Origin: Promethearchaeota archaeon
Lineage (GTDB): Archaea > Asgardarchaeota > Lokiarchaeia > Sigyniarchaeales > SOKP01
Length of the DNA stretch: 32,000 nt
Reading direction: 5' to 3'
Assembly (NCBI GenBank): GCA_030606485.1
Contig: JAUWGH010000001.1
Coordinates: 60,001 to 92,000 of the forward strand
Positions 11,564-25,255 of the stretch are shown here, in pieces. The position numbers and the translations under genes are program-made. Positions within the stretch are counted from its first letter, which is position 1. Every line of letters starts with the position of its first letter. The notes beneath the pieces were generated by a model, which was given only the letters and a program-made list of their open reading frames with translations, was not told where the DNA came from and ran no database searches.

Positions 11564-13042
11564 ATGACTCTTGAAAAATTTGATTTAATTTATAAAGATA
11601 ATAGGTGTAAGATAAAAGATAAAGAAAAGATTCTTTCTAAATTAAAGGCTATTTTGGGAGAAGAAAATGTTTCAACCAAAGAAATAGATTTAATTGCTTA
11701 TTCTAAAGATTCTACGCTAATAACCTTAATTTGGAGAATCCAGGGAAAATTAGCAGCATTACCCGATTTTATAACATGGCCTGAAAATAATGATCAAATA
11801 GTTCAGACTCTAAAATTAGCAAATGAGGAAAAAATTCCTGTAATCCCTTATGGTGAAGGTTCAGGTGTTGTTGGTGGTGCGATACCAGTATATGGTGGTA
11901 TTATTATTGACATGAAAAAATTCAATAAAGTATTGGAGATTAATGATAAAGATTTAACTGTTACGGTTCAAACAGGTATAAATGGGATGAATTTAGAGAG
12001 ATATCTCAATGCTAAGGGCTATACTTGTGGACATATTCCCCAATCTATCTATATGTCTTCTGTTGGTGGGTGGATTGCCCACAGAGCAGCAGGTCAATTT
12101 TCTACAAAATATGGAAAAATAGAAGATATCGTCTTGGGGTTAGAAGTTATTTTACCACAAGGTGAAATCATTGAACTAAAAACAATAATCAGAGCAGCAA
12201 CCGGACCCCAATTTGATAAATTATTTATTGGAGGAGAAGGCACATTAGGGATAGTTACTAAAGCAACTTTAAAAATATGGCCATCTCCAGAAAAAAGAGA
12301 ATTAATCTCTTTCGCATTTCCAACTATAGAAGATTCATTAGAAGCTATCAGAAATATTTTAAGGAATCAGATTTATCCTGCAGTGATTCGTATATATGAT
12401 GCCTCTGAAACAGTAAGGCATTTCCCCCAAGTTAAAGAAGCGAAAGATAAAGTTATGGCTGTTTTTGTTTGTGAAGGAAATGAAAGACTTGTAAATTTAG
12501 AAGGAATTATTACAAGAGAAAAATGTGAAGATAATAATGGTGTTAATTGTGGAGAAGAACCAGTAGAACACTGGTTTGAAACAAGATTTAGGGTAACAGA
12601 AACATCATTAATTCCTCCATATAAAATTGTAATTGACACTATTGAAGTATCTGTTATGTGGGAACATGCTGCAGAATTATATCATTTAGTTCTTGATTCA
12701 GTTAAGAAAGTTAAAGGTATTCTTTATATAACCGCTCATGCTTCACATTTTTATCCCAATGGGGTTGGTTTTTATTTTTCATTTGCTGGTGTTGCAACTG
12801 GAGGAAAATCTAATTTTGAGTTTTATCAAGAATGTTGGGATGTTATAATGGATGGATGTGTTAAAGCTGGAGGATCTATTGCTCACCATCATGGGATTGG
12901 CATCAATAGAGCACGTTGGATGGAAAAAGAATGGGGGAAAGCTTTAAGATCACTAATAGATATAAAAAATTTACTTGATCCAAATAATATTTTAAATCCG
13001 GGAAAAACTTACTTTCCCCCTGAAAAGGGAGGTGCTAAATAA
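11564..13042 (+). CDS. FAD-binding oxidoreductase, alkyl-dihydroxyacetone-phosphate synthase (AGPS)-like
   Basis: PYGEGSGVVGG, GHIPQS..SSVGGWIA, YGKIEDIV.GLEV, GGEGTLGIVT, SHFYPNG, HHHGIG and DPNNILNPGK. The HHHGxG and HxYxxG motifs fit the AGPS branch rather than GlcD/D-LDH. Confidence 0.85.
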   Translation: MTLEKFDLIYKDNRCKIKDKEKILSKLKAILGEENVSTKEIDLIAYSKDSTLITLIWRIQGKLAALPDFITWPENNDQIVQTLKLANEEKIPVIPYGEGSGVVGGAIPVYGGIIIDMKKFNKVLEINDKDLTVTVQTGINGMNLERYLNAKGYTCGHIPQSIYMSSVGGWIAHRAAGQFSTKYGKIEDIVLGLEVILPQGEIIELKTIIRAATGPQFDKLFIGGEGTLGIVTKATLKIWPSPEKRELISFAFPTIEDSLEAIRNILRNQIYPAVIRIYDASETVRHFPQVKEAKDKVMAVFVCEGNERLVNLEGIITREKCEDNNGVNCGEEPVEHWFETRFRVTETSLIPPYKIVIDTIEVSVMWEHAAELYHLVLDSVKKVKGILYITAHASHFYPNGVGFYFSFAGVATGGKSNFEFYQECWDVIMDGCVKAGGSIAHHHGIGINRARWMEKEWGKALRSLIDIKNLLDPNNILNPGKTYFPPEKGGAK

Positions 13043-13043
13043 A

Positions 13044-14318
13044 ATGAGTATCTTCGAACAATTAAAAAAGTATAAATATATAATTCCTATCATTACCAAT
13101 GCTGATCGTGATGTTAAAAGAATAATTTTAAAGAGTTTTAGGTTAAAAAAAAAATTTTTTTATCCTCAAGGAGAATATAAAGCTGATGTAAAAAATTTGA
13201 TTAATTGTATGTTATGTCTTAAAATGTGCAGATTTGATTGCAATTCTCTCCAAGGTGCAAAAACTGAAAGAGTAGCACCTGCTTATAAATCCCTAATTGG
13301 CTATTATCTTTCAGTCGGCAAAATCGATCCTTCTAAAGAAGAAAATAAAGACTTTATTAATTTAATGTATGAATGCTGTAATTGCGAAAACTGTAAAATT
13401 TGGTGCCCATTCGATTTTTCAGTAGTTTCATTGCTTGAAACTGTTCGAGATGATATTAATGATAAAGGTTTGACTCCAAATTATATAAAAGAACAAATAG
13501 AAAAATTAAATAAAACTCATACTATAGAAGACACAAATATATTCAAGACTTATGAGGAGAAGGTCATTGCAAATGTCGAATCTGATGGAAATGATGATGT
13601 TTTTTATTATATTGGATGCGAAACGATGAAATACCCAGAAGTTGTTAAAGGCAATATTGAAATATTGAAGAAGGCTGGTATTAAATTCTCAACTAACTTA
13701 GATAAAAGATGGTGTTGTGGTGCCCCATTATTTAATACTCGACATTTGGATTTAGCGAAAGAATATGCAAAGCAAAATATTGATTTGATCACGGGTTCAG
13801 GGGCAAAACTAGTTGTGACTGATTGTCCGGGTTGTGCTGATACTTTACTTAATCGATATGAAAAGATTGGTTTTAAATCAAAGGTAAAAGTGATTCATAT
13901 CTTACAATTATTTAAACAATTAATTGAGGAAAATAAACTCATTCTTAAAAATCAAATTCCTGAAGAATTCAAAAATGTAGTCTATCACGATCCATGCTTG
14001 ATGTCAAGAAATTTAAATGTTATTTCCGAACCAAGAGAAGTTTTGAAGAAAATTCCGGGATTAAATCTATTAGAGCCAATTTGTAATGAAAAATATACAC
14101 ATTGCTGTGGGTATAGCGGTACGCTCCATTGGGCAAATAATGATTTAGCGGTAAAAATCTCGCAAAATAGAGTCAATGAATTGATTGAAACAGGTGCAAA
14201 TATAATCGTTACGGCTTGCCCACTTTGTGAATTAGGATTAGAAAAAGGAATTGAAGAAAATAATAAAAAGAAAATTAAAATAATAGACTTAACTGAATTA
14301 ATTGCAAAAGTTATATAA
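13044..14318 (+). CDS. Fe-S oxidoreductase with two ferredoxin-type clusters and two CCG domains (GlpC/HdrD-like)
   Basis: CMLCLKMCRFDC, CCNCENCKIWCP, WCCGAP/DCPGC, YHDPC, HCCG and TACPLC motifs. ATG at 13044 is 1 nt after the upstream stop; the track's GTG at 13032 overlaps the upstream gene. Confidence 0.9.
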   Translation: MSIFEQLKKYKYIIPIITNADRDVKRIILKSFRLKKKFFYPQGEYKADVKNLINCMLCLKMCRFDCNSLQGAKTERVAPAYKSLIGYYLSVGKIDPSKEENKDFINLMYECCNCENCKIWCPFDFSVVSLLETVRDDINDKGLTPNYIKEQIEKLNKTHTIEDTNIFKTYEEKVIANVESDGNDDVFYYIGCETMKYPEVVKGNIEILKKAGIKFSTNLDKRWCCGAPLFNTRHLDLAKEYAKQNIDLITGSGAKLVVTDCPGCADTLLNRYEKIGFKSKVKVIHILQLFKQLIEENKLILKNQIPEEFKNVVYHDPCLMSRNLNVISEPREVLKKIPGLNLLEPICNEKYTHCCGYSGTLHWANNDLAVKISQNRVNELIETGANIIVTACPLCELGLEKGIEENNKKKIKIIDLTELIAKVI

Positions 14319-14350
14319 ATTTCAAAAGAAAATATAAAAATGTGATAAAA

Positions 14351-15892
14351 ATGGATACATATGTTTTATGCCTTGATATTGGGACTACTAACATTAAAGC
14401 TTTCCTTTTTGAGAAAAATGGTGAAATTTTCGCCCAAGCCAAAAGAAAACCTAAATATATTATGGAAGAAAAGGGTCAAATAGAGCAGGATCCAAAAGAA
14501 ATCTGGGAATTAAGCAGACAAGTTATGGAAGAAGTTATAAAATCAAATAATTTAAGTCCCGAGAATATAGCAGCAATTGGTATTACTACTCAAAGAGCTT
14601 CCTTTCTTTTCTGGGATAAAAATACAGGAAAAATTTATTCTAATATTATCACTTGGCAAGATAAACGATGTGCTTCATATACTGAGAAAAAAAATAAAAG
14701 TTTCTATTTTAGATTTTTACGAGGTATAACAAAATTTATCTACTTATTTACACGCGATATAAAATTATTAACATTTTCAACCATAAAATTCACTACTGAT
14801 CATACATCCATGAGAACAGGATATTTTCTTGAAACACATCCGGAGGTTAAAGAATTAATTAGCAATCCCAATACTAACGTAGTATGGGGGACAATTGATA
14901 CTTGGATATTATGGAATTTAACTGAAGGGAGGGTTTTTGCTACTGACTATTCAAATGCTCATACCGGTTTGGTTGATCCATTTAAATTAGAATACAATTC
15001 TATTTATTTAAAAGCAATGGGAATTCCAGAATATATATTACCAGAAATTAGAGATACTAGAGGAGATTTCGGAAAAACAAAAATTTTTGGCGGCGAAATA
15101 CCCATTACATGTTTAATTGGAGATCAAATGGCCAGTTTATTCGGACAGTGCTGTTTTAACAAAGGATCAATGAAAGTTACAAATGGTACGGGCTCATTTG
15201 TAGATCTTAATACAGGACAAAAATGTTATGCTTCAAAAAGAAAATTATACCCACTAATTGCTTGGCATATCAATGAACAAACCACTTATATGACGGAAGG
15301 AATGTCTCATAACGCCGGTAATATCATAGATTGGTTACAGAATGAACTGGGACTATATAATGATCCCTCCGAAACAGAAAAAATGGCATTAAGTGTGGAT
15401 TCAACAGAGGGCGTTTATTTTTTACCAACATTTACAACCGGCATCTCATTTCCATATTGGGATTCAACTGCACGAGGAAATATTTTTGGTGTAGACTTAG
15501 ATACTAAAAAAGAACATATTGTAAGAGCAGTTCTAGAAGGATTTTGTTTTAGAATAAAAGATATCGTTGAAGGGATTATTAAAGACACAAAAATTCAAAT
15601 AGAAAAAATAAAAGCTGATGGGGGAGTATCTCAAAATAAATTTCTTCTTCAGTTTTTAAGCGATATATTAGAAATGGATGTTGAACTTACAGGTAACCCT
15701 GAAACTACTGCATTAGGTGCTGCTTTTATGGCTGGACTAGCAGTTGGATATTGGAAGTCTGAAGAAGAACTCTTGCAGATAAGAAGAGTAGAAAAAACCT
15801 ATAAACCTCAGATGACAGAAGAAGAACGTAATAGGAAATATATGATATGGAAAGATATAGTGGCAAGATCTCTAGACTGTGTTTATTATTAA
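14351..15892 (+). CDS. FGGY carbohydrate kinase, glycerol kinase 5 (GK5)-like
   Basis: LDIGTT, TQR, TWQD, GTIDTW, TDYSNA, GDQ, GTGSF, ADGG and TALGAA motifs, plus an amphipathic insert after WQD. ATG at 14351 follows a GTGA-type RBS. Confidence 0.9.
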   Translation: MDTYVLCLDIGTTNIKAFLFEKNGEIFAQAKRKPKYIMEEKGQIEQDPKEIWELSRQVMEEVIKSNNLSPENIAAIGITTQRASFLFWDKNTGKIYSNIITWQDKRCASYTEKKNKSFYFRFLRGITKFIYLFTRDIKLLTFSTIKFTTDHTSMRTGYFLETHPEVKELISNPNTNVVWGTIDTWILWNLTEGRVFATDYSNAHTGLVDPFKLEYNSIYLKAMGIPEYILPEIRDTRGDFGKTKIFGGEIPITCLIGDQMASLFGQCCFNKGSMKVTNGTGSFVDLNTGQKCYASKRKLYPLIAWHINEQTTYMTEGMSHNAGNIIDWLQNELGLYNDPSETEKMALSVDSTEGVYFLPTFTTGISFPYWDSTARGNIFGVDLDTKKEHIVRAVLEGFCFRIKDIVEGIIKDTKIQIEKIKADGGVSQNKFLLQFLSDILEMDVELTGNPETTALGAAFMAGLAVGYWKSEEELLQIRRVEKTYKPQMTEEERNRKYMIWKDIVARSLDCVYY

Positions 15893-16052
15893 AATTTAAA
15901 ATTTCTAACCTTTTTTTTACAATTACCTGAAAAAATAAATTTTGATTTAAATTATAATTAAATTGAATTCTTATTCTCATATTAAAAATATATAAAACTT
16001 TTTATTCTAAATAATTAAAATTCTATCCTTAAATTTTTTCCTTCTTTTCCAA

Positions 16053-16310
16053 TTAAATTATTCTAAAGTAATGCAGACCGTAATCTGGACCACATACAAT
16101 CAAAAGAATACCTGCAAAGATAAGAAATTTTGCACCATTCTTATTAATAGTTTTTTTACCTAATAAACAAATTATTCCGAAAACGCCCAGTAATAAACCT
16201 AACATGGAGCCAAATGCACGCACAAAATTCAACAGATCTCCAAATGTATTAGGCAATTCATTAAAAAAAACTTCTAATAAATCAGGAAATTGAAAAATTT
16301 GATAATCCAT
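16053..16310 (-). CDS. Small two-TM hairpin membrane protein (pilin-like architecture)
   Basis: Amphipathic FGDLLNFVRAFG, TM1, basic loop KKTINKNGAK, TM2; AGGGTG RBS. Confidence 0.75.
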   Translation of the reverse strand: MDYQIFQFPDLLEVFFNELPNTFGDLLNFVRAFGSMLGLLLGVFGIICLLGKKTINKNGAKFLIFAGILLIVCGPDYGLHYFRII

Positions 16311-16442
16311 TTTGTTTTTTACACCCTTATCTAAATTTTTTCCTATACAAATTCAAATAATTGATTCTATTACGATTGTAAAAGGAATATATTTAAAGGA
16401 AAAAAGAAATCATTGTTTTTTTTCTGAGTTGATTAGGTAAAT

Positions 16443-16724
16443 TCAACGCCACCTATTTCCTAGGAATGGTAATTCTGGAAATGAACCGAATAATTCTGCG
16501 AGATTTATAGACAGACCTCCCGTAATAGTAAGTATCGTTATCCCAATTATTAAGTAAAGTGCATCTTTAAAGATCCAGCCAACTTTTTTACTAAGAATAG
16601 AAATAACTATATACATAACTCCGATTATTGAAAAAATACTGCCAATTATGGTAATCAACACAGAAAAAAATGAGAAATCCGTAATAACAAATAAATTTAT
16701 TCCTTGGAAAATAATCAAATTCAT
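16443..16724 (-). CDS. Small two-TM hairpin membrane protein (pilin-like architecture)
   Basis: TM1, loop SKKVGWIFKD, TM2; GAGGTGA RBS 7 nt before ATG. Confidence 0.75.
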   Translation of the reverse strand: MNLIIFQGINLFVITDFSFFSVLITIIGSIFSIIGVMYIVISILSKKVGWIFKDALYLIIGITILTITGGLSINLAELFGSFPELPFLGNRWR

Positions 16725-16745
16725 ATGATTTTCACCTCTTATTAC

Positions 16746-17087
16746 TTAATGCCAACCCTTCGGTGTGTCTCTTCCAAAAATTACCCAACTAAATAAATTT
16801 TCGATACCAAATGGAGAACCTAAGTATAAGCCAAAAAGCAAACAAATTAGTCCTAAAATAATTTTACCTGCTCTGCCTTTTTTATTTATTAAACCAGCAA
16901 CCAAATAAACACAACCCATTATGAATAAGACTGCTGGAAAAAAAGAAAAAATTGTCTCAAAAATATCTTTTAAAGGATTAACTAGACTGAGCATAATATT
17001 CTCTTGAAAATAAGTTAAAGCCGCAATACAGCCAATTATAATTAATGTTATGGTTGTAAATGATCCTGATTTTTTCAAGTTAGACAA
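16746..17087 (-). CDS. Small membrane protein with signal-like N-terminus and two-TM hairpin (TrbC/VirB2-like architecture)
   Basis: Hydrophobic leader, amphipathic LVNPLKDIFETIFSFF, TM1, loop NKKGRAGK, TM2; GGAGG RBS inside the upstream gene end; TTG start. Confidence 0.75.
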   Translation of the reverse strand: MSNLKKSGSFTTITLIIIGCIAALTYFQENIMLSLVNPLKDIFETIFSFFPAVLFIMGCVYLVAGLINKKGRAGKIILGLICLLFGLYLGSPFGIENLFSWVIFGRDTPKGWH

Positions 17088-17089
17088 TT

Positions 17090-18592
17090 TTACCTCCCCT
17101 TTTTAACCATTATTGCAATTATTACTAAACCTCCAAAAAATATAAACGTCAATATTATATTCAATTCCTCGATTCCGATATTGATTTCATTGTTCCAGAA
17201 TTCCCTATGAATTGTATATATGATATCATCACTTTTTGGTTGAGTTTCTCCAAAAATATTTCGAAACTTCGCATAGATTGAATATTTTTTTCCATCCTCA
17301 GATCCTTCTAAATATAAATTTTTTGTGGTATTATAGGGTTCCCAAGATGTCCAAACCCCATCTGTTCCGTTCCTAAAGCACATCTCTTGTGCTAACTCTG
17401 CTGTTATATCAAGTGTAATAAACATAGAGTATGTATTATCTGAGCCATTATTTATTTTTATTATCGCGTTGAAAGGTTGAGAATATATAATTTGAATACT
17501 ATCATTTACTGAATATAATATCTCACCGGCTTCATTCCGAAATTTTGCATAAATTGAATAAGTTAATCTGTTTCTTGTACCTGCCAAAAATAATTTTTTA
17601 GTTGTATTATAAGGCTCCCAATTACTCCAATTTTTTGCTGTGAAATTACTAAAACACATTTCTTCCGCGTCTTTAGCAAAAATAGATACATTTACTAAAG
17701 ATGTTAAAGTGTATTGAGCACCATCATTTATCTGAATCTGTGGATTTGTGGGTAAATACCCAATATATAAAATACCATCATTAGCTATATTAGATTCTCC
17801 TATCGAATTACTAAATTTCACACAAATTGTATATTCAGAATTGTTTACTGGGTCTATTAGATATATGTTTTTACTTGTTTTATACGGTTCCCAGGAAGTC
17901 CAAGCACCAGTTCCATATTTAAAACACATTTCATCAGCATCATTTGCGGAAAGTGTTAAATTTACTGATTTAGAATTAGTAATCTCTGCATTATTATTTA
18001 TTTTAATCTTGGGATTTGTAGGTGGAGTCTCATATGTCCAAATCAATCGTGGCACTTTATTCGCAGGACCTTCTCTACTACTTCCTATTAGCCAATTTGC
18101 ATTATTTATAGTAGGATCATGAATTAAAATAGAAAACCCATCTTCACCCTGTATAAAATCCGTAACATCAAAAGTGTAGAAGCCATTTTCTGAAATTTCA
18201 TCCTTTAGTATAAAGGTCTCCCCTATAGGTGCATTAAACCAATTAATCGTATCCTCTTCCCAATCTACGTTTACCGTAAAGATTTGAATATCTATAGGAT
18301 CATATTGAATTTTAAAGTAAATCCTTATCTCAACCTTTATAACATTATCTGGTTTATCTGTGAAAGGAAAATGTAGGAATGCGGTGCGCTTTCCCATTAA
18401 AATCGTAAGATCCCACATTACCCAAAAATCTTCCTCAGAACCATAATTGCCTAAAGGTAGAAGGTCTATTACATAAGAATCCTTATCCGCTATTGTCGAA
18501 ACAGTCGCAATTCCAGCACTACCCTGAACAGGATTAATATTATGATCTATTCCGTATAAAAATGAAAACATTCCAATTAAGAGAATAATCAT
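17090..18592 (-). CDS. Cell-surface protein: signal peptide, DNRLRE-like domain, three Ig-like repeats, C-terminal TM anchor
   Basis: ADKDSYV..NYG..TAFLHF..WEEDTINWFNAP..FDVTD..SSRE..PRL pattern, three ~90-aa repeats and a hydrophobic C-terminus ending in KKGR. The true start may be ATT at 18613. Confidence 0.85.
   Translation of the reverse strand: MIILLIGMFSFLYGIDHNINPVQGSAGIATVSTIADKDSYVIDLLPLGNYGSEEDFWVMWDLTILMGKRTAFLHFPFTDKPDNVIKVEIRIYFKIQYDPIDIQIFTVNVDWEEDTINWFNAPIGETFILKDEISENGFYTFDVTDFIQGEDGFSILIHDPTINNANWLIGSSREGPANKVPRLIWTYETPPTNPKIKINNNAEITNSKSVNLTLSANDADEMCFKYGTGAWTSWEPYKTSKNIYLIDPVNNSEYTICVKFSNSIGESNIANDGILYIGYLPTNPQIQINDGAQYTLTSLVNVSIFAKDAEEMCFSNFTAKNWSNWEPYNTTKKLFLAGTRNRLTYSIYAKFRNEAGEILYSVNDSIQIIYSQPFNAIIKINNGSDNTYSMFITLDITAELAQEMCFRNGTDGVWTSWEPYNTTKNLYLEGSEDGKKYSIYAKFRNIFGETQPKSDDIIYTIHREFWNNEINIGIEELNIILTFIFFGGLVIIAIMVKKGR
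17210..18022 (-). repeat. Three tandem ~90-aa intragenic repeats
   Basis: Consensus NPxIxINxG..T....V.L...A.DA.EMCF......W..WEPY.T.K...L......Y.I..KF.N..GE at residues ~191-280, 281-371 and 372-461. Confidence 0.9.
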
Positions 18593-18608
18593 AAAAATTG
18601 ACTTACTC

Positions 18609-18881
18609 CTAATAATTCACCACCTTTATTTCATTAAAAGTATTAAACGGGATTCTAAAACCAGAAAAATTACTAAAAAATTCAAACATTTTATTCAAAT
18701 TAAATAGACAAACTGCAATTAAAAAGGATAAAAGCGAAATTTTAAGATATCTATTAAAACACTCCTCTTTTCTGTGTAATATTAAACGTATTAAAAAAAC
18801 AAATCCAAAAAATTCCAAGATAAATGAAGTAATTATTAAAATTATCAAGAACCAAACGCTTGTAAAACTTAAAATGTCCAT
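18609..18881 (-). CDS. Small membrane protein with two-TM hairpin
   Basis: Hydrophobic N-terminus, TM, loop HRKEECFNRYLK, TM; first gene of the minus-strand run. Confidence 0.65.
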   Translation of the reverse strand: MDILSFTSVWFLIILIITSFILEFFGFVFLIRLILHRKEECFNRYLKISLLSFLIAVCLFNLNKMFEFFSNFSGFRIPFNTFNEIKVVNY

Positions 18882-18935
18882 TTTTATCTTGTTTATTTAT
18901 TATACTAAATTGACTTAGAACTAAAATAAAATGAG

Positions 18936-18956
18936 GATATATAAAGAAAAAAATGA
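18936..18956. promoter_or_regulatory. TATA-containing motif GATATATAAAG-A7-TGA, copy 1
   Basis: Near-identical copy at 19772-19791; lies about 55 bp upstream of the 18881 start. Confidence 0.35.
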
Positions 18957-18980
18957 GAAAATGGGTGATTATAATACGAT

Positions 18981-19148
18981 ATATTGATAAATAGGAGGAT
19001 AAAGCAAAAGTTTCTAGTGTTTCTCCGCCCATCAACAAATAGGGGGAGGAGGAGGGTAATAATAAGTGTAGAATCAATCTACACCAACCAAAAGACAAAA
19101 ATCCAGTATGGGGGGAGATGCAACTTTTGACTTTATCCTTACCAATAT
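18981..19148. ncRNA. Putative structured non-coding RNA or cis-regulatory element (strand unresolved)
   Basis: Nested inverted repeats: 18981-18990/19139-19148, 18997-19004/19131-19138, 19005-19012/19122-19129 and 19022-19032/19108-19118. Inner hairpin 19066-19072/19078-19084. Locally GC-enriched, with no convincing ORF. Confidence 0.55.
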
Positions 19149-19221
19149 TATTTTAAAACTAACTATAAAAAGATTACCATTCCATTTTTTTGTTTAAAAA
19201 AGTACAATGAGATAATGAAAT

Positions 19222-19497
19222 TTAATAATTATCATTTAATACAGAACCCACTTGTATCGCTAGATAATTTAAGATAACATCGTAATCTTCAGGTGTTATC
19301 TCTTTGGTCTTAAGAACAAATTTTTTTATGCTATTAATACAGGAGAGTTGTGTTCTAATCTTTTCAGATTGGAATTTATTATGAAGAAAGGATTCTTGAT
19401 TCCTAATCTCACATATTAACTTATCTCTTAATTCCTCAAATTGTGGATTAACTGCAATATTTTCAATTCCCATGTTATTAATTCTAAAATTCATCAT
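19222..19497 (-). CDS. Hypothetical soluble helical protein
   Basis: 91-aa ORF; TTTAAATA box about 25 nt upstream of the ATG (leaderless-type promoter position). Confidence 0.6.
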   Translation of the reverse strand: MMNFRINNMGIENIAVNPQFEELRDKLICEIRNQESFLHNKFQSEKIRTQLSCINSIKKFVLKTKEITPEDYDVILNYLAIQVGSVLNDNY

Positions 19498-19624
19498 TAT
19501 AATTTCAGATTAAATTCTAATTATTTAAATAAAAAAGGACTGGAAAGATACTATAAAGAAAGAGATATAACAAAATAACTAAGACTATATTTTCATAGAA
19601 TAAAAAAAAATAAAAAGAATAGAC

Positions 19625-19702
19625 TTATCTTGCAAAGAAATATTCTATAAGGGCTTTTGTGAAACCATCCAGCCACTCATTATTAATCTCGGCCCATTTT
19701 AT
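19625..19702 (-). CDS. Putative 25-aa peptide (xKWAEINNEWLDGFTKALIEYFFAR) with non-canonical ATA start
   Basis: Perfect AGGAGGTGA RBS at 19709-19717, 6 nt before ATA. The only nearby ATG gives a 4-codon ORF. Confidence 0.35.
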   Translation of the reverse strand: MKWAEINNEWLDGFTKALIEYFFAR

Positions 19703-19771
19703 GATTTTTCACCTCCTACAATTTTATATTCAAAATTTGAAAAAATTGTATTGAATCATATTTTTAATAAA

Positions 19772-19791
19772 GATATATAAAGAAAAAATGA
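19772..19791. promoter_or_regulatory. TATA-containing motif GATATATAAAG-A6-TGA, copy 2
   Basis: Near-identical to 18936-18956; lies about 55 bp upstream of the RBS at 19709-19717. Confidence 0.35.
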
Positions 19792-20028
19792 AGACCAAGA
19801 GAGATTAAATTGAATAAAACTCACTTTCTCTCTAAAAAAGCAATTGTTTTATATCAATTGGGACAATATTATTATGAATTATGCAATTTTAGTTTATTTC
19901 CGATATGATTCCACTCTAGTTCTATATTTAAAGAAAGAAAATAATTGTTGAAAGATTTTTTTCTCTTTAAATAGATTTATTTTAAGAAGAGTATAGCAAT
20001 TAATTTTCTATAAAAATCGGAATTTATT

Positions 20029-21057
20029 ATGAGTAAAATCAATCGAGAGAAAAAAAATAATAAATGGAATACATCACAAAATGAAGAAGTAAAAAGATAT
20101 TATTTATTGGGTAATAAATTTCTTGAACAAAGAAATTTCCAAGAAGCAATAATCTATTATAAAAAAGCATTAGAAATTGATCCCCAAGATATCTCAACTC
20201 TTGCTAATTTAGGTCGAGCATATCATCATCAGTCTGTTCTTCAATCATCAACTAAAGATCTGAGTTTATTGGACAATTCTGAAGCTTGTTATCTAGAAGC
20301 AACGAAAATAGATCCCAATTTCTGGTTATCATACTTCACTTTGGGAGTAATTAAAATTGAACGGAAAGAATTTTTAAAAGCACTAATATATCATCTGAAA
20401 TTTCTTACTGTCTATGAAAAAGCGAAAGTAAAAAACTTCAAAATGTATAATCATGCAACCAATTATATTGTAGAATCCATTAAAAAAGGAAAGATTTCTG
20501 TAGAATATTACAAAAAATTATTAAATATCTCAATTTCTAAAGAAATATGGACACTATTGGGATACGGTTTGCTACATAATCAATTATATGAATACTCCGA
20601 AGAATGCTTTCTTAAAGTAATCGAAAAACACCCGGATTATTCTAGTGGATATATTGATTTGGGAAATGTGTATATGGAAATGATTAAAAATATTCCCGAT
20701 TATTGTCCTGATTTGAATAAAATAAAAAAATATCTTAAAAAAGCAGTTGAACTTGACACTAATAATGAAATTGCTTGGAATAATTTGGGAACATATTATA
20801 CATTTGTTGATTACTATGAAAAAGCAAAATTGTGCTATAAAACAGCAATTAAACTCAAAAATGATTACAAAATATCATGGTATAGTCTTGCAAGTATTCT
20901 GGTCAAGAAGGGTTTATATAAAGAAGCAATAAAATATCTAAAAAAGGTCATTCAAATCGACCCAAATTATACTCCTGCTAAAAAAGCGTTAGATCTACTT
21001 AAAAATAATACCAACGAACAATTATCCAAAAAAAGAATAGAACTGAAAATAATATAA
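20029..21057 (+). CDS. Tetratricopeptide-repeat protein
   Basis: Repeated TPR motifs (YYKKALEIDPQD, LANLG, AWNNLG, KVIQIDPNY). Confidence 0.9.
   Translation: MSKINREKKNNKWNTSQNEEVKRYYLLGNKFLEQRNFQEAIIYYKKALEIDPQDISTLANLGRAYHHQSVLQSSTKDLSLLDNSEACYLEATKIDPNFWLSYFTLGVIKIERKEFLKALIYHLKFLTVYEKAKVKNFKMYNHATNYIVESIKKGKISVEYYKKLLNISISKEIWTLLGYGLLHNQLYEYSEECFLKVIEKHPDYSSGYIDLGNVYMEMIKNIPDYCPDLNKIKKYLKKAVELDTNNEIAWNNLGTYYTFVDYYEKAKLCYKTAIKLKNDYKISWYSLASILVKKGLYKEAIKYLKKVIQIDPNYTPAKKALDLLKNNTNEQLSKKRIELKII
20447..21057 (+). repeat. 611-bp direct repeat, copy 1 (3' part of TPR gene)
   Basis: Colinear without indels with 23217-23827; 165 of 202 aa identical by manual count. Confidence 0.92.
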
Positions 21058-21389
21058 TGCATTCTCTTTATTAATACATTTATCCATTTTTAAATTAATT
21101 AGAATAGGGAAATTGTTGGTTAAAATTATAATCATTGATTTCTATATTTCTTAAAATAATAAAATATTTCAAGTCGACATAAGAAAAATTAATTCTTTTA
21201 GAATGTGCAAGCGAAAAGTCTTAAAAGAAATAATTTTGGTCGTCTATAAACAACATTCTTATCTAATTATTTAATTTTCATTGTAATTTAAAATTAAGTA
21301 TAAAATATTAAGTATACATATACACTCCACTCAACCACACATACTATAAAAAAAAGAATATAAACTCTTTTCAGGTAATAGATTGATGA

Positions 21390-22172
21390 TTATTTAATTC
21401 TGGTAGGTTTCTTTTCTGATCTAACTTTTATGGGGTTTGAACGAACTTCTGAAAGGATCATTATAATATTGTTCAGCAACCCCTCAATCGTGTTGGATAT
21501 TTCAGCTTTTGGACGAATTTCTCTTGCGGGTTTGGTGAATTTTTTGAGTCGATCCCAACTATATGCTGCATAAAACGCCACAGGAAGTGTTTTAATAATG
21601 AGATCTTTGTGATTACGGAGCTTAACTATGAAATTTACTCCCTCGTGTATTTGTATTCCATTATTTAGCTTATAACTCGTACCTTTTCTCTGTACATCTG
21701 AGATAATCATGTCAAAGTCGTTGTCTATATTAAGTATTTCTTCCGCCATTTCACTAGATATTACCATAACCACCTCAAGACCTAATTCCCTAAGTAATCG
21801 TCTTTCACCGATGAGGTTGTGTGGATTGTCATCTATCCAAAGAATGCGACTTCCTTTTATTAGTTCGATCTCTGATGCTTTACTTAAAAGCATTTCCTTT
21901 AATTGTTTGTTTTCCATTCGATCTAGATCTAAACCTTTTAAAGCTCTTTCAGCCTGTTTTTTATTCAATGATAGTTCTATTCCTCCCGCTTTAATAGATT
22001 CTAACCTCTCCCATGGTAAGATAAGAATAGCAACGGCTGAAGCTAATAAAAATAGGAAAATAGGATCTATTTTTTCACCAAGTGTGTCAAAAAAAATAAA
22101 TCGGATAATTGCAAGTAGTATAACACTTATAGAGAGTAAGATTTTTACGATTGGAGGTTTAATATTTTTCAT
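21390..22172 (-). CDS. Membrane-anchored (2 TM) response-regulator receiver-domain protein, atypical
   Basis: Two N-terminal TMs; RILWIDDNP acidic pocket; FDMIISD phosphoacceptor; no output domain. Confidence 0.8.
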   Translation of the reverse strand: MKNIKPPIVKILLSISVILLAIIRFIFFDTLGEKIDPIFLFLLASAVAILILPWERLESIKAGGIELSLNKKQAERALKGLDLDRMENKQLKEMLLSKASEIELIKGSRILWIDDNPHNLIGERRLLRELGLEVVMVISSEMAEEILNIDNDFDMIISDVQRKGTSYKLNNGIQIHEGVNFIVKLRNHKDLIIKTLPVAFYAAYSWDRLKKFTKPAREIRPKAEISNTIEGLLNNIIMILSEVRSNPIKVRSEKKPTRIK

Positions 22173-22303
22173 AAAATCACTTTTTATAATTTATTTTAAA
22201 ATTTTTTGGATTATAATTGAGATTTATCGCTACTCGTTATTAGAGAGACCAATTAGTAAATCATTTAGGAAAAAAAAAATATAAATTAAATTTTCATTAA
22301 TAA

Positions 22304-22801
22304 TTATCTGGGTTTTGGCTTGACTATTGGTTCAATAGATATAGTACTGTTATTAACTATTTGGTTATATTTATTGATAAATGCAATCATTGCTGCAGCA
22401 GAAATTTTATTATCATAACTAGCTCCAAATGCACCGATTCCATTGATTAACTCATTAAAATCTTTATATGTATTATACTCTTTATAAATATAGAAATTAT
22501 ATATTGAAATCAATATCATCAAAACTATGCTTATTATTGATAAAAACAGATCATAAGAGGCTTCAGGTAATAGAATCTTAAATAAAAGACTTGCAATAAC
22601 AATTGGAATTAAATAATTTAAAATTAAAATAATAAGAGAAAGCCCTTTAAATAAGTCACGTTTTTTTGCTATTTTTTCTTGATATTCAATTAATTCTTGG
22701 TTACTTGGTTTTCTACCATTTTTATATCTAAAGTGAAGAAAATATATTTTGTCTATAAAGCTATCACAATCATATACATTATCAGTACTCATATTATTCA
22801 T
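22304..22801 (-). CDS. Hypothetical two-TM membrane protein
   Basis: 165-aa ORF with two hydrophobic segments; GAGG RBS-like sequence upstream. Confidence 0.7.
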   Translation of the reverse strand: MNNMSTDNVYDCDSFIDKIYFLHFRYKNGRKPSNQELIEYQEKIAKKRDLFKGLSLIILILNYLIPIVIASLLFKILLPEASYDLFLSIISIVLMILISIYNFYIYKEYNTYKDFNELINGIGAFGASYDNKISAAAMIAFINKYNQIVNNSTISIEPIVKPKPR

Positions 22802-22812
22802 TTTCCTCTTTC

Positions 22813-22953
22813 TTATTTTTTAGATTGATAGAATATATTCGAAAATTCGAATATATCTTCCTCTTCCTTTTCCTCTTCAAGCTTTTTCTTGATCGTAAAT
22901 TCAATTTTTTCTTTTTTCTCCTTATCATTACTTTCTTTATTATTTGAATTCAT
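22813..22953 (-). CDS. Putative 46-aa charged small protein (MNSNNKESNDKEKKEKIEF...FYQSKK)
   Basis: ATG-initiated ORF ending 11 nt before the 22801 start; below the track length cutoff. Confidence 0.35.
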   Translation of the reverse strand: MNSNNKESNDKEKKEKIEFTIKKKLEEEKEEEDIFEFSNIFYQSKK

Positions 22954-23170
22954 TTTTTCTAGCTCTTTTCCTTTTTTTTTTTTTTGATTTTTTTTTTTAA
23001 AATCGAGAATTTATATCTTTTATTTACTTTTACTAGAGAATTTCTATTATTTAACATAGAAGTTAAATATCTTAATAAATCTAATTATTATTTTCTACTC
23101 CATTCTTATCCAAATTATATATAGAAAATGGAGATTGGCGTAGAAATAGGAAAAATCTAACTCAATCAAC

Positions 23171-23827
23171 GTGATGAATACTTTAGAAATTATGAAGGAG
23201 GACAAACATCTTTCCGATAATCATGCAATTGACTATATTGTAGAGTCTATAAAAAAAGGAAAGATTTCTGTAGAATCATTCAAGAAATTATTAAATATCT
23301 CAATTTCTAGAGAAATATGGTCACTATTGGGTTATGGCTTCTTACATAATCAATTATATGAATCTGCCGAATTATGCTTTCTTAAAGTAATCGAAAAACA
23401 TCCAGATTATTCTAATGGATATATTGATTTGGGAAATGTGTATATGGAGATGATTAAAAATATTCCAGATTATTGTCCTGATTTGAATATAATTGAAAAA
23501 TTTCTTGAAAAAGCCGTCGAGCTTGACACCAACAATGAAATTGCATGGAATAATCTGGGAACATATTATACATTTATTGATGATTTTGAAAAAGCGAAAT
23601 TTTGCTATGAAACATCAATTAAACTTAAAAATTATCACATAACACTATGGTATAGTCTATCAAGTATCTATGTCAAAAAGGGTCTATATAAAGAGTCAAT
23701 AAAATGCCTAAAAAAAGTTGTTCCAATTGATCCAAATTATACCCCTGCTAAAGAAGCGTTGGACATACTTAAGAATAATACTAAGGAACAATTATCCAAG
23801 AAAAGAATTGAATTAAGAATAAATTAA
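23171..23827 (+). CDS. TPR protein, N-terminally truncated paralog of 20029-21057
   Basis: After 15 unrelated residues it matches the last 202 aa of the first TPR gene. Confidence 0.85.
   Translation: MMNTLEIMKEDKHLSDNHAIDYIVESIKKGKISVESFKKLLNISISREIWSLLGYGFLHNQLYESAELCFLKVIEKHPDYSNGYIDLGNVYMEMIKNIPDYCPDLNIIEKFLEKAVELDTNNEIAWNNLGTYYTFIDDFEKAKFCYETSIKLKNYHITLWYSLSSIYVKKGLYKESIKCLKKVVPIDPNYTPAKEALDILKNNTKEQLSKKRIELRIN
23217..23827 (+). repeat. 611-bp direct repeat, copy 2
   Basis: Matches 20447-21057, starting ATAATCATGCAA in both copies. Confidence 0.92.
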
Positions 23828-23828
23828 A

Positions 23829-24095
23829 TCAATCAGTTAAACTTACCAAGAATTTACAATTCTTGCAATATATAAAAGGACTATGAACCTTCAATTGCAG
23901 CGGACTTTCACACATGGGACTAAGATTCCTTCTTTTTGGAATAAGACTCACAATAAACTTACACTCGCTGCAATAAATGAAGGGTTTCTGAATCTTTATT
24001 TTGAATGGTCTCCCACAATCAGGACATTTGGCTTTATAATCTTCAAAAAGAGTATTGATCTTTTCAATATTGCTAATATTCTTTTGTATAATGAT
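23829..24095 (-). CDS. Tandem zinc-ribbon protein (not in ORF track; no ATG/GTG/TTG start)
   Basis: Manual translation: IIIQKNISNIEKINTLFEDYKAKCPDCGRPFKIKIQKPFIYCSECKFIVSLIPKRRNLSPMCESPLQLKVHSPFIYCKNCKFLVSLTD*. Its stop lies 1 nt from the convergent TPR stop. Confidence 0.7.
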   Translation of the reverse strand: MIIQKNISNIEKINTLFEDYKAKCPDCGRPFKIKIQKPFIYCSECKFIVSLIPKRRNLSPMCESPLQLKVHSPFIYCKNCKFLVSLTD

Positions 24096-24169
24096 TTATT
24101 AAAAATTTTTAATGTTATTAAATTATTGATTTTAATTTATAAGATAAACAAGAAAGTTTGTTATTAATC

Positions 24170-25255
24170 TTATGAGCGAAAGATTAAAGATTTAAACTTA
24201 TTATCTATATAATCATTTATTTCTGCATCTAAACCTAGTCTAGAAAGCTCTACAAGCTCAATAATATCATCATCGCTAAGAAATATAATATATTTATCAT
24301 CGTCTAAATAACTTTGACATCTTTCAAGTATAATCTTTTTATTTTTTACTTTTCTAAATACTAAAATGCCAAAATTGCCCACCTTTTTATTTAATCTACT
24401 AGCAAGTTGATCAAATTCTGGATTTTCTGGATCATAGCTATAATTCTTAGCTTCCATTATGACGTAATTACATATTATAATGTTATTCTTTTCGGGAAGA
24501 TTTTTAAAAAATCCTGTTTGAGCAGAATTAGTATAGATTGTATCAATATATTTCCTACCTTTGTGAATTCCTCTTTCAAATTCCATATTTCTAAAAGATT
24601 TTCTAAAAATGTATGCGATAATCTTTGAAATTAATTTATGATACTTATGTGCTTCCTTTTCTCCTGGTTTAATTTCTAATAAAAGATTTAAATTTCTTAA
24701 AATTTCAGGAATTATTTTTTTCGAAAAAAGAAGATTCCAAATTTTTTCTATATCTTTCTCACTAAATATACATGGTTTCCATTTTCTTAATTCTTTAATA
24801 ATTTCTTTTTTTAAATTATATTTTCCCTCATTGATTAATTGAAGCATAGATGCAGTTAGTTCTATTGATTTTAACTCCTTCAATTCATTATTAAATAAAT
24901 CTTCTGTTTTACATATTGCCATACCTTCTTCTGAATTTAATCTTAGGCTATATCCCTTTCTATTGAAATAATTTTCAATCTTTTCCTTATTTGCAATAAT
25001 CCTATTTTTATTATAATAATTTTCAATATTGATAAAATTTTTTTTTTCAAAGAAAACTATTTCATTCTCTAACTCGAAACTATAGGGACCAAATTCATGT
25101 CTTTGAAAGTTATAATTTAAATTTTTTATACCAAAATATTTAAGAATGAAAATAGTCTTCTGAAAAATGAATTTTCCCTTTATTTCTTCTATATTATACA
25201 AAATTTTAAGAAGTTCAAGCCTTTTTTGCCATAGATTATGCGAGAAATCATGCAT
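24170..25255 (-). CDS. Fusion of SocA/Panacea(YwgA)-like N-terminal domain and Mrr-like PD-(D/E)xK endonuclease
   Basis: N-terminal FQKTIF..YNF...FGPYSFEL and IELTAS; C-terminal GRKYIDT...IMEAKNY..FDQL..GILV. Confidence 0.7.
   Translation of the reverse strand: MHDFSHNLWQKRLELLKILYNIEEIKGKFIFQKTIFILKYFGIKNLNYNFQRHEFGPYSFELENEIVFFEKKNFINIENYYNKNRIIANKEKIENYFNRKGYSLRLNSEEGMAICKTEDLFNNELKELKSIELTASMLQLINEGKYNLKKEIIKELRKWKPCIFSEKDIEKIWNLLFSKKIIPEILRNLNLLLEIKPGEKEAHKYHKLISKIIAYIFRKSFRNMEFERGIHKGRKYIDTIYTNSAQTGFFKNLPEKNNIIICNYVIMEAKNYSYDPENPEFDQLASRLNKKVGNFGILVFRKVKNKKIILERCQSYLDDDKYIIFLSDDDIIELVELSRLGLDAEINDYIDNKFKSLIFRS

Follow-up and report, generated by a model that had tools for sequence, protein, structure and literature searches.

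The locus described here raises the question of what a GK5-type kinase phosphorylates in an archaeal cell, and what the answer may say about its eukaryotic counterparts. GK5 is conserved from protists to mammals. Loss of Gk5 in mice leads to a skin-lipid and hair phenotype, and a mouse serum-lipid QTL that includes ether PE maps over Gk5 as one candidate gene. The stretch of DNA analysed (32,000 nucleotides in all, hereafter referred to as the window) comes from an Asgard archaeon of the Lokiarchaeia and encodes a relative of GK5 within a gene cluster. Where prokaryotic members of the family lie in operons, they narrow the candidate substrates and partners of GK5 to a few that can be tested; Asgard archaea in culture (P. 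syntrophicum MK-D1, Ca. Lokiarchaeum ossiferum) have copies, and so does Leptospira throughout.

The GK5 family itself is already known and its name is attached to Asgard and Leptospira proteins in the databases. In the literature searched, no paper linking GK5 to Asgard archaea was found, the Asgard-contribution paper makes no mention of glycerol kinase, and the Leptospira locus tags searched for are not mentioned. The new elements of the present analysis are a tree built independently of the insert and examined by AU tests, counts of the residues concerned, the finding that another kinase (hereafter K2) is distributed in a complementary way, and a second kinase with a full glycerol signature in the same genome.

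Placement of the kinase within the glycerol kinase family

The kinase gene occupies positions 14351..15892 of the forward strand, on which all the window features given below also lie, and encodes 513 amino acids from the ATG at 14351, with an in-frame GTG at 14342 as an alternative start. A frameshift or assembly artefact was ruled out, the ORF being intact and the insert described below being present in over 100 prokaryotic relatives. The product belongs to the FGGY carbohydrate kinase family, its modelled structure has the GlpK fold (TM about 0.9), and its identity to GlpK is 37%. It scores below the cut-offs of both GlpK equivalog models of NCBIfam (461.7 against 590.35 for TIGR01311; 464.6 against 498 for NF000756).

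The phosphate-1 loop (14375..14389; D9, equivalent to GlpK D10, with G11, T12 and T13), which forms the ATP/Mg motif, is intact, as are the catalytic D258 (D245 of GlpK), Q259, the phosphate-2 loop and F283 (F270) at 15122..15199, where N278 replaces GlpK Y265. The glycerol-stacking Trp of the W102-Q-D104 motif (14654..14662) is retained, and the Asp of this motif is found in 137/137 GK5-like proteins. Across canonical GlpK, prokaryotic GK5-like proteins and putative eukaryotic GK5, the GlpK residues D10, G12, R83, D245, G266 and E303 are kept, and W103, Q246 and F270 nearly throughout. From these intact motifs we infer an active, ATP-dependent kinase; a pseudokinase is unlikely, the catalytic motifs being invariant.

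Phylogenetic trees were inferred under LG+C20 PMSF after removal of the motif and insert columns to avoid circularity. In two trees a single clade (96/95 and 97/93) unites the window kinase with eukaryotic GK5, with further Asgard copies and with some of the bacterial ones; other archaeal insert forms, among them those of Methanolliviera and Thermoplasmata, diverge immediately outside it. The window kinase is set apart from GlpK by 99/93 in one tree and falls within a 97/93 clade without GlpK in the other; branching with ordinary GlpK, the outcome on which a GK5 reading could have failed, did not occur. A clade uniting GK5 and GlpK was rejected (AU p=0.0055). Two signatures outside the insert, DPF (209-211) and YP (300-301), recur in the prokaryotic and in the eukaryotic GK5-like group but hardly occur in GlpK, and the top three ESM Atlas clusters are all named GK5. 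The GK5 affinity, which the initial annotation had read from motifs and the insert, is thus borne out by motif-free trees, by the AU test, by signatures elsewhere in the protein and by cluster names. As judged from these sequence comparisons, which show that within the glycerol kinase family it belongs to the GK5 branch, the window gene is not an ordinary GlpK, a candidate ruled out by the NCBIfam scores, the tree position and the residue counts given below. An origin of GK5 within the canonical GlpK/GK clade was also rejected by the AU test, the GK rows P0211 and P0224 being taken as eukaryotic from their motif only.

Eukaryotic GK5 is monophyletic inside a mostly Asgard clade (99/95; 98/96). 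An Asgard origin of GK5 is what the best trees depict, but the alternative in which all prokaryotic insert forms are forced together was not rejected (AU p=0.0625); spirochaete and other bacterial members are interleaved. The closest homologues of the window kinase are named Lokiarchaeia/Promethearchaeota proteins, several of them already called 'glycerol kinase 5' in NCBI, a name also borne in NCBI/UniRef by P. syntrophicum QEE15805 and Leptospira Q8F0D1. Family members were identified in P. syntrophicum MK-D1, Harpocratesius, Sigynarchaeota, Hodarchaeales, Ca. L. ossiferum and Leptospira. The window kinase is 35-38% identical to those eukaryotic members that are source-named, and proteins from Styela ('glycerol kinase 5-like' by source name), C. 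brenneri and Chromosphaera carry the same insert. Like eukaryotic GK5 (e.g. Styela clava XP_039262763), the window kinase falls into the shared clade even without the diagnostic columns, has a 57-residue segment, lacks E84 and Y135 and carries DPF and YP; unlike it, the window kinase is archaeal, shares its gene cluster with a flavoprotein resembling alkyl-DHAP synthase (ADPS) and with a CCG-domain protein, and has no SREBP context.

The Leptospira interrogans GK5 (L074:7998-9542) is most closely related, outside Leptospira, to Asgard proteins (60-65% identity), among which it nests, a placement that suggests a transfer between archaea and bacteria. Short, GlpK-like, insert-free proteins of the NQRAT type (P0127, P0129, P0169 and similar), which are without E84 and variable at Y135, shift their placement relative to GK5 between trees.

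The glycerol pocket and the amphipathic insert

Residues were counted in 74 canonical GlpK, in 112 prokaryotic insert-bearing proteins and in 25 putative eukaryotic GK5 (the last two groups giving 137 GK5-like proteins). A motif scan of genome contigs gave mostly canonical GlpK and was used as the control set, and the putative eukaryotic rows were mostly assigned by clade, the Styela, Caenorhabditis brenneri and Chromosphaera proteins being source-named. E84 and Y135 hydrogen-bond glycerol hydroxyls in GlpK (PMC3245297, PMC2680290) and are two of its five published specificity positions (PMC3245297), while the C3 hydroxyl of glycerol is activated by D245 (PMC2680290); two structure papers list the glycerol contacts and give no per-oxygen assignments. 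Three of the five specificity residues (R83, D245 and F270) are kept in the window kinase, and E84 and Y135 are lost. Alignment to E. coli GlpK confirmed the reading of the initial annotation that TQRAS (T80-S84; 14588..14602) stands in place of the GlpK NQRET motif, with R82 (GlpK R83) kept and A83 replacing E84. D150-H151 (14798..14803) fall in the columns of GlpK Y135-F136, and the DPYFS motif that follows WQD in GlpK is replaced, the segment being as originally quoted. The absence of Glu84 and Tyr135, also claimed at the outset, holds for the whole group: E84 is found in 74/74 canonical GlpK and 0/137 GK5-like proteins, as is Y135 when its column is anchored on W143 (74/74 against 0/137). 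We take these two residues to hold specifically the distal O1 hydroxyl of glycerol. Of the 112 prokaryotic members, 79 have His or Tyr one residue beyond the column of Y135 (H151 in the window kinase); this residue, which is not conserved in eukaryotic GK5, might partly stand in for Y135.

The window kinase thus resembles GlpK (EC 2.7.1.30; E. coli, PDB 3G25, 1GLF) in fold, ATP loops and the residues R83, W103, D245 and F270, and differs from it in the replacement of E84, Y135, F136, R188 and Y265, in a longer segment after the Trp and in its separate clade. The span W102-Y158, corresponding to the GlpK columns W103-W143, measures 57 residues against 41 in GlpK; the amphipathic segment noted earlier is therefore real, and its excess, first put at about 15 residues, is 16. 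The same 57-residue span is found in 24/25 putative eukaryotic GK5 and in 70/112 prokaryotic relatives. Within it lies a basic, amphipathic two-helix insert (residues 118-144; 14702..14782), modelled as helices 118-134 and 137-144 (AF2, mean pLDDT 96.7), where the 18-mer with the highest hydrophobic moment of the whole protein is found (0.83) and the net charge is +8. The group averages for moment and charge are 0.55 and +6.6 in eukaryotic GK5 against 0.34 and +1.4 in GlpK, so that the cationic amphipathic character is retained from Asgard archaea to animals. Binding of the insert to membranes, as first proposed, is plausible and has comparative support. One kinase of the GK5 clade (L070:6783-8279, genome G227) has a shortened insert, apparently a secondary partial loss.

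The substrate reading that best fits these features, to which we assign a probability of about 0.4, is that the window kinase phosphorylates a 1-O-substituted glycerol, probably monoacyl or monoalkyl. The residues at the phosphorylated end of the pocket (R83, W103, D245, F270) are kept, the far end would be opened by the change of E84 to Ala and the loss of Y135, and a basic amphipathic helix pair has been gained in the same stretch as the pocket changes. The substrate would then bear its substituent on the far (sn-1) oxygen of glycerol; a monoacyl- or monoalkylglycerol is the likeliest, with the insert giving access to it at a membrane surface, and free glycerol would still be accepted as a poorer substrate. 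The absence of E84 and Y135 throughout the GK5-like set, at positions invariant in the 74 GlpK, favours this reading, and the original proposal of a substituted glycerol is plausible with comparative support. The same pocket can also be read as that of a membrane-tethered but otherwise ordinary glycerol kinase, converting free glycerol to sn-glycerol-3-phosphate with an insert that only anchors the enzyme or binds partners. R83, W103, D245, Q246 and F270 are kept as such an enzyme would need, and H151 or D150 might restore the hydrogen bond, whereas the absence of E84 and Y135 from all GK5-like and K2 proteins is left unexplained; we consider it a serious alternative, though somewhat less likely. 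Were plain glycerol the substrate, the finding would be an older origin of GK5 than the 'metazoan' label implies, one already mirrored in database naming.

The conserved gene cluster and the kinases that occupy it

The first gene of the conserved cluster (11564..13042) encodes an ADPS/AGPS-like FAD enzyme (best PDB match ADPS, E 1.9e-65) that retains the Arg, Tyr and triple-His residues of the ADPS alignment. It is followed by a gene for a CCG-domain/4Fe-4S protein (GlpC/GlcF-like; 13032..14318, with the ATG at 13044 as the likelier start), the probable electron-accepting partner of the flavoprotein, and then by the kinase gene. This trio was observed in 12/12 family loci examined and in 3/9 same-order loci, and also in five genomes of another Asgard family, in Ca. 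Methanolliviera and, by Pfam architecture, in one metagenomic locus.

Lipid-type neighbours of GK5-like genes occur in separate lineages, a further point in favour of a substituted-glycerol substrate. A PlsC-type acyltransferase gene lies directly downstream of the GK5-like gene in two spirochaete loci; in one bacterial context the GK5-like gene is found between an FAD oxidase and a GlpD-like gene, together with SDR genes, and in another near an acyltransferase and an alpha/beta hydrolase, while an alpha/beta hydrolase gene is downstream of the GK5-like kinase in the archaeal family f1. Hodarchaeales copies face thiolase and acyl-CoA synthetase genes. Nothing informative was found among the neighbours in several further GK5-like loci examined. 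The GlpD/GlpABC and acyltransferase neighbours suit glycerol-3-phosphate equally; a tethered glycerol kinase could deliver its product to GlpD/GlpABC, to the ADPS-like/CCG enzyme or to acyltransferases.

Two neighbours would be in keeping with the salvage of archaeal monoethers, in which 3-O-geranylgeranyl- or phytanyl-sn-glycerol would be phosphorylated to a G1P-configured intermediate for re-use by DGGGP synthase: in Hodarchaeales a UbiA prenyltransferase gene lies two genes downstream, and in Ca. Methanolliviera the kinase gene is followed by one for a geranylgeranyl-reductase-like protein. Both score under their family cut-offs. Such a substrate would also call for inverted stereochemistry at C2, and R83 and D245 are unchanged (the stereochemical argument being our own inference), and Leptospira and animals, which are without such lipids, keep the same kinase family, all of which makes monoether salvage very unlikely. 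Many archaeal GK5-like copies, such as those of MK-D1 and Harpocratesius, stand alone, as might be expected of a mainly regulatory or scaffolding protein whose insert would serve to bind other proteins; the analogy would be to mouse GK5, which has an SREBP-related role and regulates cholesterol synthesis in sebaceous glands. The conservation of all catalytic and ATP-binding residues, and the position of the gene in an enzyme cluster conserved across lineages, render a scaffold extremely improbable.

Some variation in gene order was also observed. In P. syntrophicum MK-D1 the ADPS-like, CCG and GlpD-like genes form one run (L181, G143:C1:2685000-2699500) and the GK5 gene is elsewhere; in Leptospira the ADPS-like and GlpD-like genes adjoin each other (L204), away from GK5. 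In the close relative G147 the kinase gene is directly followed by alpha/beta hydrolase, MazG-like and purine genes. Other genes follow the kinase in the window (15893-24170), the hydrolase gene being at C10:112458, and this region looks inserted or rearranged relative to G147. Most f1 genomes also encode, immediately before the ADPS-like gene, a conserved protein of ~490 amino acids with no Pfam or NCBIfam match (L038:11396-12877 and about 20 f1 loci), whose homologue in the window genome is located elsewhere (C8:283677-282205).

The same operon slot, after the ADPS-like and CCG genes, is occupied in most f1 genomes by K2, an unrelated FGGY kinase (e.g. C60:14783-16237 of G240, L038:5284-6738) that forms a separate clade (100/99), is 24% identical to GlpK and has xylulokinase-like proteins as its nearest named clusters. 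K2 keeps R83, W103, D245 and F270, is without E84, has the Y135 loop deleted and carries no insert. Among 134 f1 genomes, ADPS-like genes are present in 108, K2 in 87 and GK5-like genes in 24; the two kinases occur together in only 5, in tandem in G240, and the genus g5 is without all three genes alike. K2 also comes first in an operon of other Asgard families that includes GlpABC, an ADPS-like gene and a CCG gene. Four tandem K2 copies with two ADPS-like genes were observed in one genome (G170:C202).

K2 tells against the substituted-glycerol reading in two ways: it fills the slot insert-free, so that a membrane anchor is not required there, and its absence of E84 may be ancestral rather than convergent, since loss of E84 and Y135 is normal in FGGY kinases for sugars. 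It favours instead a small soluble substrate (a short glycerol ether, diglycerol, a glycosylglycerol fragment or a C4-C5 polyol) handled by a soluble catabolic module unrelated to lipids, as the insert-free, xylulokinase-like K2 can take the place of the GK5-like kinase, a CCG partner suggests that the flavoprotein carries out a redox step whereas AGPS is redox-neutral, and the YgcE/YgcU pair of E. coli is a further, presumably non-lipid, variant. A soluble module leaves unaccounted for the conserved cationic amphipathic insert and the genes for acyltransferase, hydrolase and thiolase found near GK5-like genes, and the five genomes with both kinases, including the tandem pair in G240, suggest different substrates; it is judged unlikely.

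Where a triple-His ADPS-like gene and a kinase could be seen in one locus, the kinase was GK5-like in 21 cases, K2 in 19 (one locus having both) and YgcE-like in one, never with E84, and no canonical GlpK locus has an ADPS-like neighbour (0/76 bacterial and 0/13 Asgard, or 0/89); the loci were hand-picked and the genomes are related rather than independent, which makes this a pattern and not a statistic. The pairing of the ADPS-like gene with E84-less kinases, and never with canonical GlpK in the loci tallied, supports a substituted-glycerol substrate and is left unexplained by a tethered glycerol kinase. A second kinase of the window genome (C6:186574-188121), divergently arranged with a GDPD gene, has all five GlpK signature residues, is far from GlpK in the tree (35% identity) and is possibly a convergent or ancient glycerol kinase. 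In several Hodarchaeales, too, a kinase bearing the complete glycerol signature is encoded separately, and the presence of such enzymes favours a substituted glycerol, rather than glycerol itself, as the substrate of the GK5-like copy. The window genome also encodes a GlpD-like protein (C5:157953) and acyltransferases.

A candidate pathway and its known counterparts

Under the substituted-glycerol reading, a GK5-type kinase would convert R-O-glycerol to R-O-glycerol-3-phosphate, a GlpD/GlpABC-type enzyme would oxidise this to R-O-DHAP, and the ADPS-like flavoprotein would cleave or oxidise at C1 and remove the substituent, passing electrons to the CCG protein. The known relatives of the ADPS-like enzyme act on C1-substituted DHAP. 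The role of the pathway would be the breakdown or salvage of lipid backbones, with the insert-bearing GK5-type kinase serving long-chain substrates at the membrane and K2 shorter ones; the PlsC-type enzyme encoded next to the kinase in spirochaetes could acylate the product there instead.

A similar module, likened here by description, is the P. aeruginosa operon PA3026-PA3024 (FAD oxidoreductase, GlpD-like protein, FGGY kinase; PMC8151288), in which an FGGY kinase is also linked to an ADPS-like flavoprotein; in the window genome, in contrast, the flavoprotein is paired with a CCG protein, and the gene for the dehydrogenase is found elsewhere. The operon is co-regulated with phospholipase C and a lipid kinase, and its deletion leaves growth on glycerol unaffected (PMC8151288), which speaks against a tethered glycerol kinase, although redundancy could explain it. 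The E. coli ygcU/ygcE pair shows the same linkage of an FGGY kinase to an ADPS-like flavoprotein, but YgcE belongs to a distant clade.

The demonstrated alkylglycerol kinase of worms and mice is ACAD10, which phosphorylates both 1-O-alkyl- and 1-O-acylglycerol, and the salvage of chimyl alcohol is largely lost in worms with acds-10 knocked out (bioRxiv 10.1101/2025.09.10.675409). ACAD10/ACAD11 (1-O-alkylglycerol kinase, EC 2.7.1.93; bioRxiv 10.1101/2025.09.10.675409) thus catalyse the reaction proposed for the window kinase, with an atypical, CoA-activated protein-kinase-like domain instead of an FGGY kinase. No match to the APH family (PF01636) was found in the window genome, and the genus Caenorhabditis has a GK5-like protein too (C. 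brenneri). Mouse GK5 is cited in PMC6473107 as active on glycerol in vitro (citing Zhang 2017), a report that favours a tethered glycerol kinase. The long-chain alkylglycerol version of the substituted-glycerol reading is weakened by this activity, by the role of ACAD10 and by the insert-free K2 in the operon slot, and for the same reasons the tethered glycerol kinase and the small soluble substrate stay live.

The wider proposal, that GK5 is primarily a membrane-associated monoacyl/monoalkylglycerol kinase rather than a glycerol kinase, was inherited by eukaryotes from the Asgard host and, in Asgard archaea, starts an anaerobic route for the breakdown or recycling of bacterial/eukaryotic-type (sn-1-substituted) glycerolipid backbones by way of GlpD-type and Fe-S-coupled ADPS-like enzymes, is improbable as a whole. 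If the substrate is sn-1-substituted, Asgard archaea would handle bacterial-type lipid backbones with an enzyme passed on to eukaryotes, a prospect that bears on the lipid divide. Two more FGGY kinases of the window genome (C6:109107 and C8:425046), which by the tree are unrelated to GK5, have longer, basic, hydrophobic-looking segments of their own after the W..R motif.
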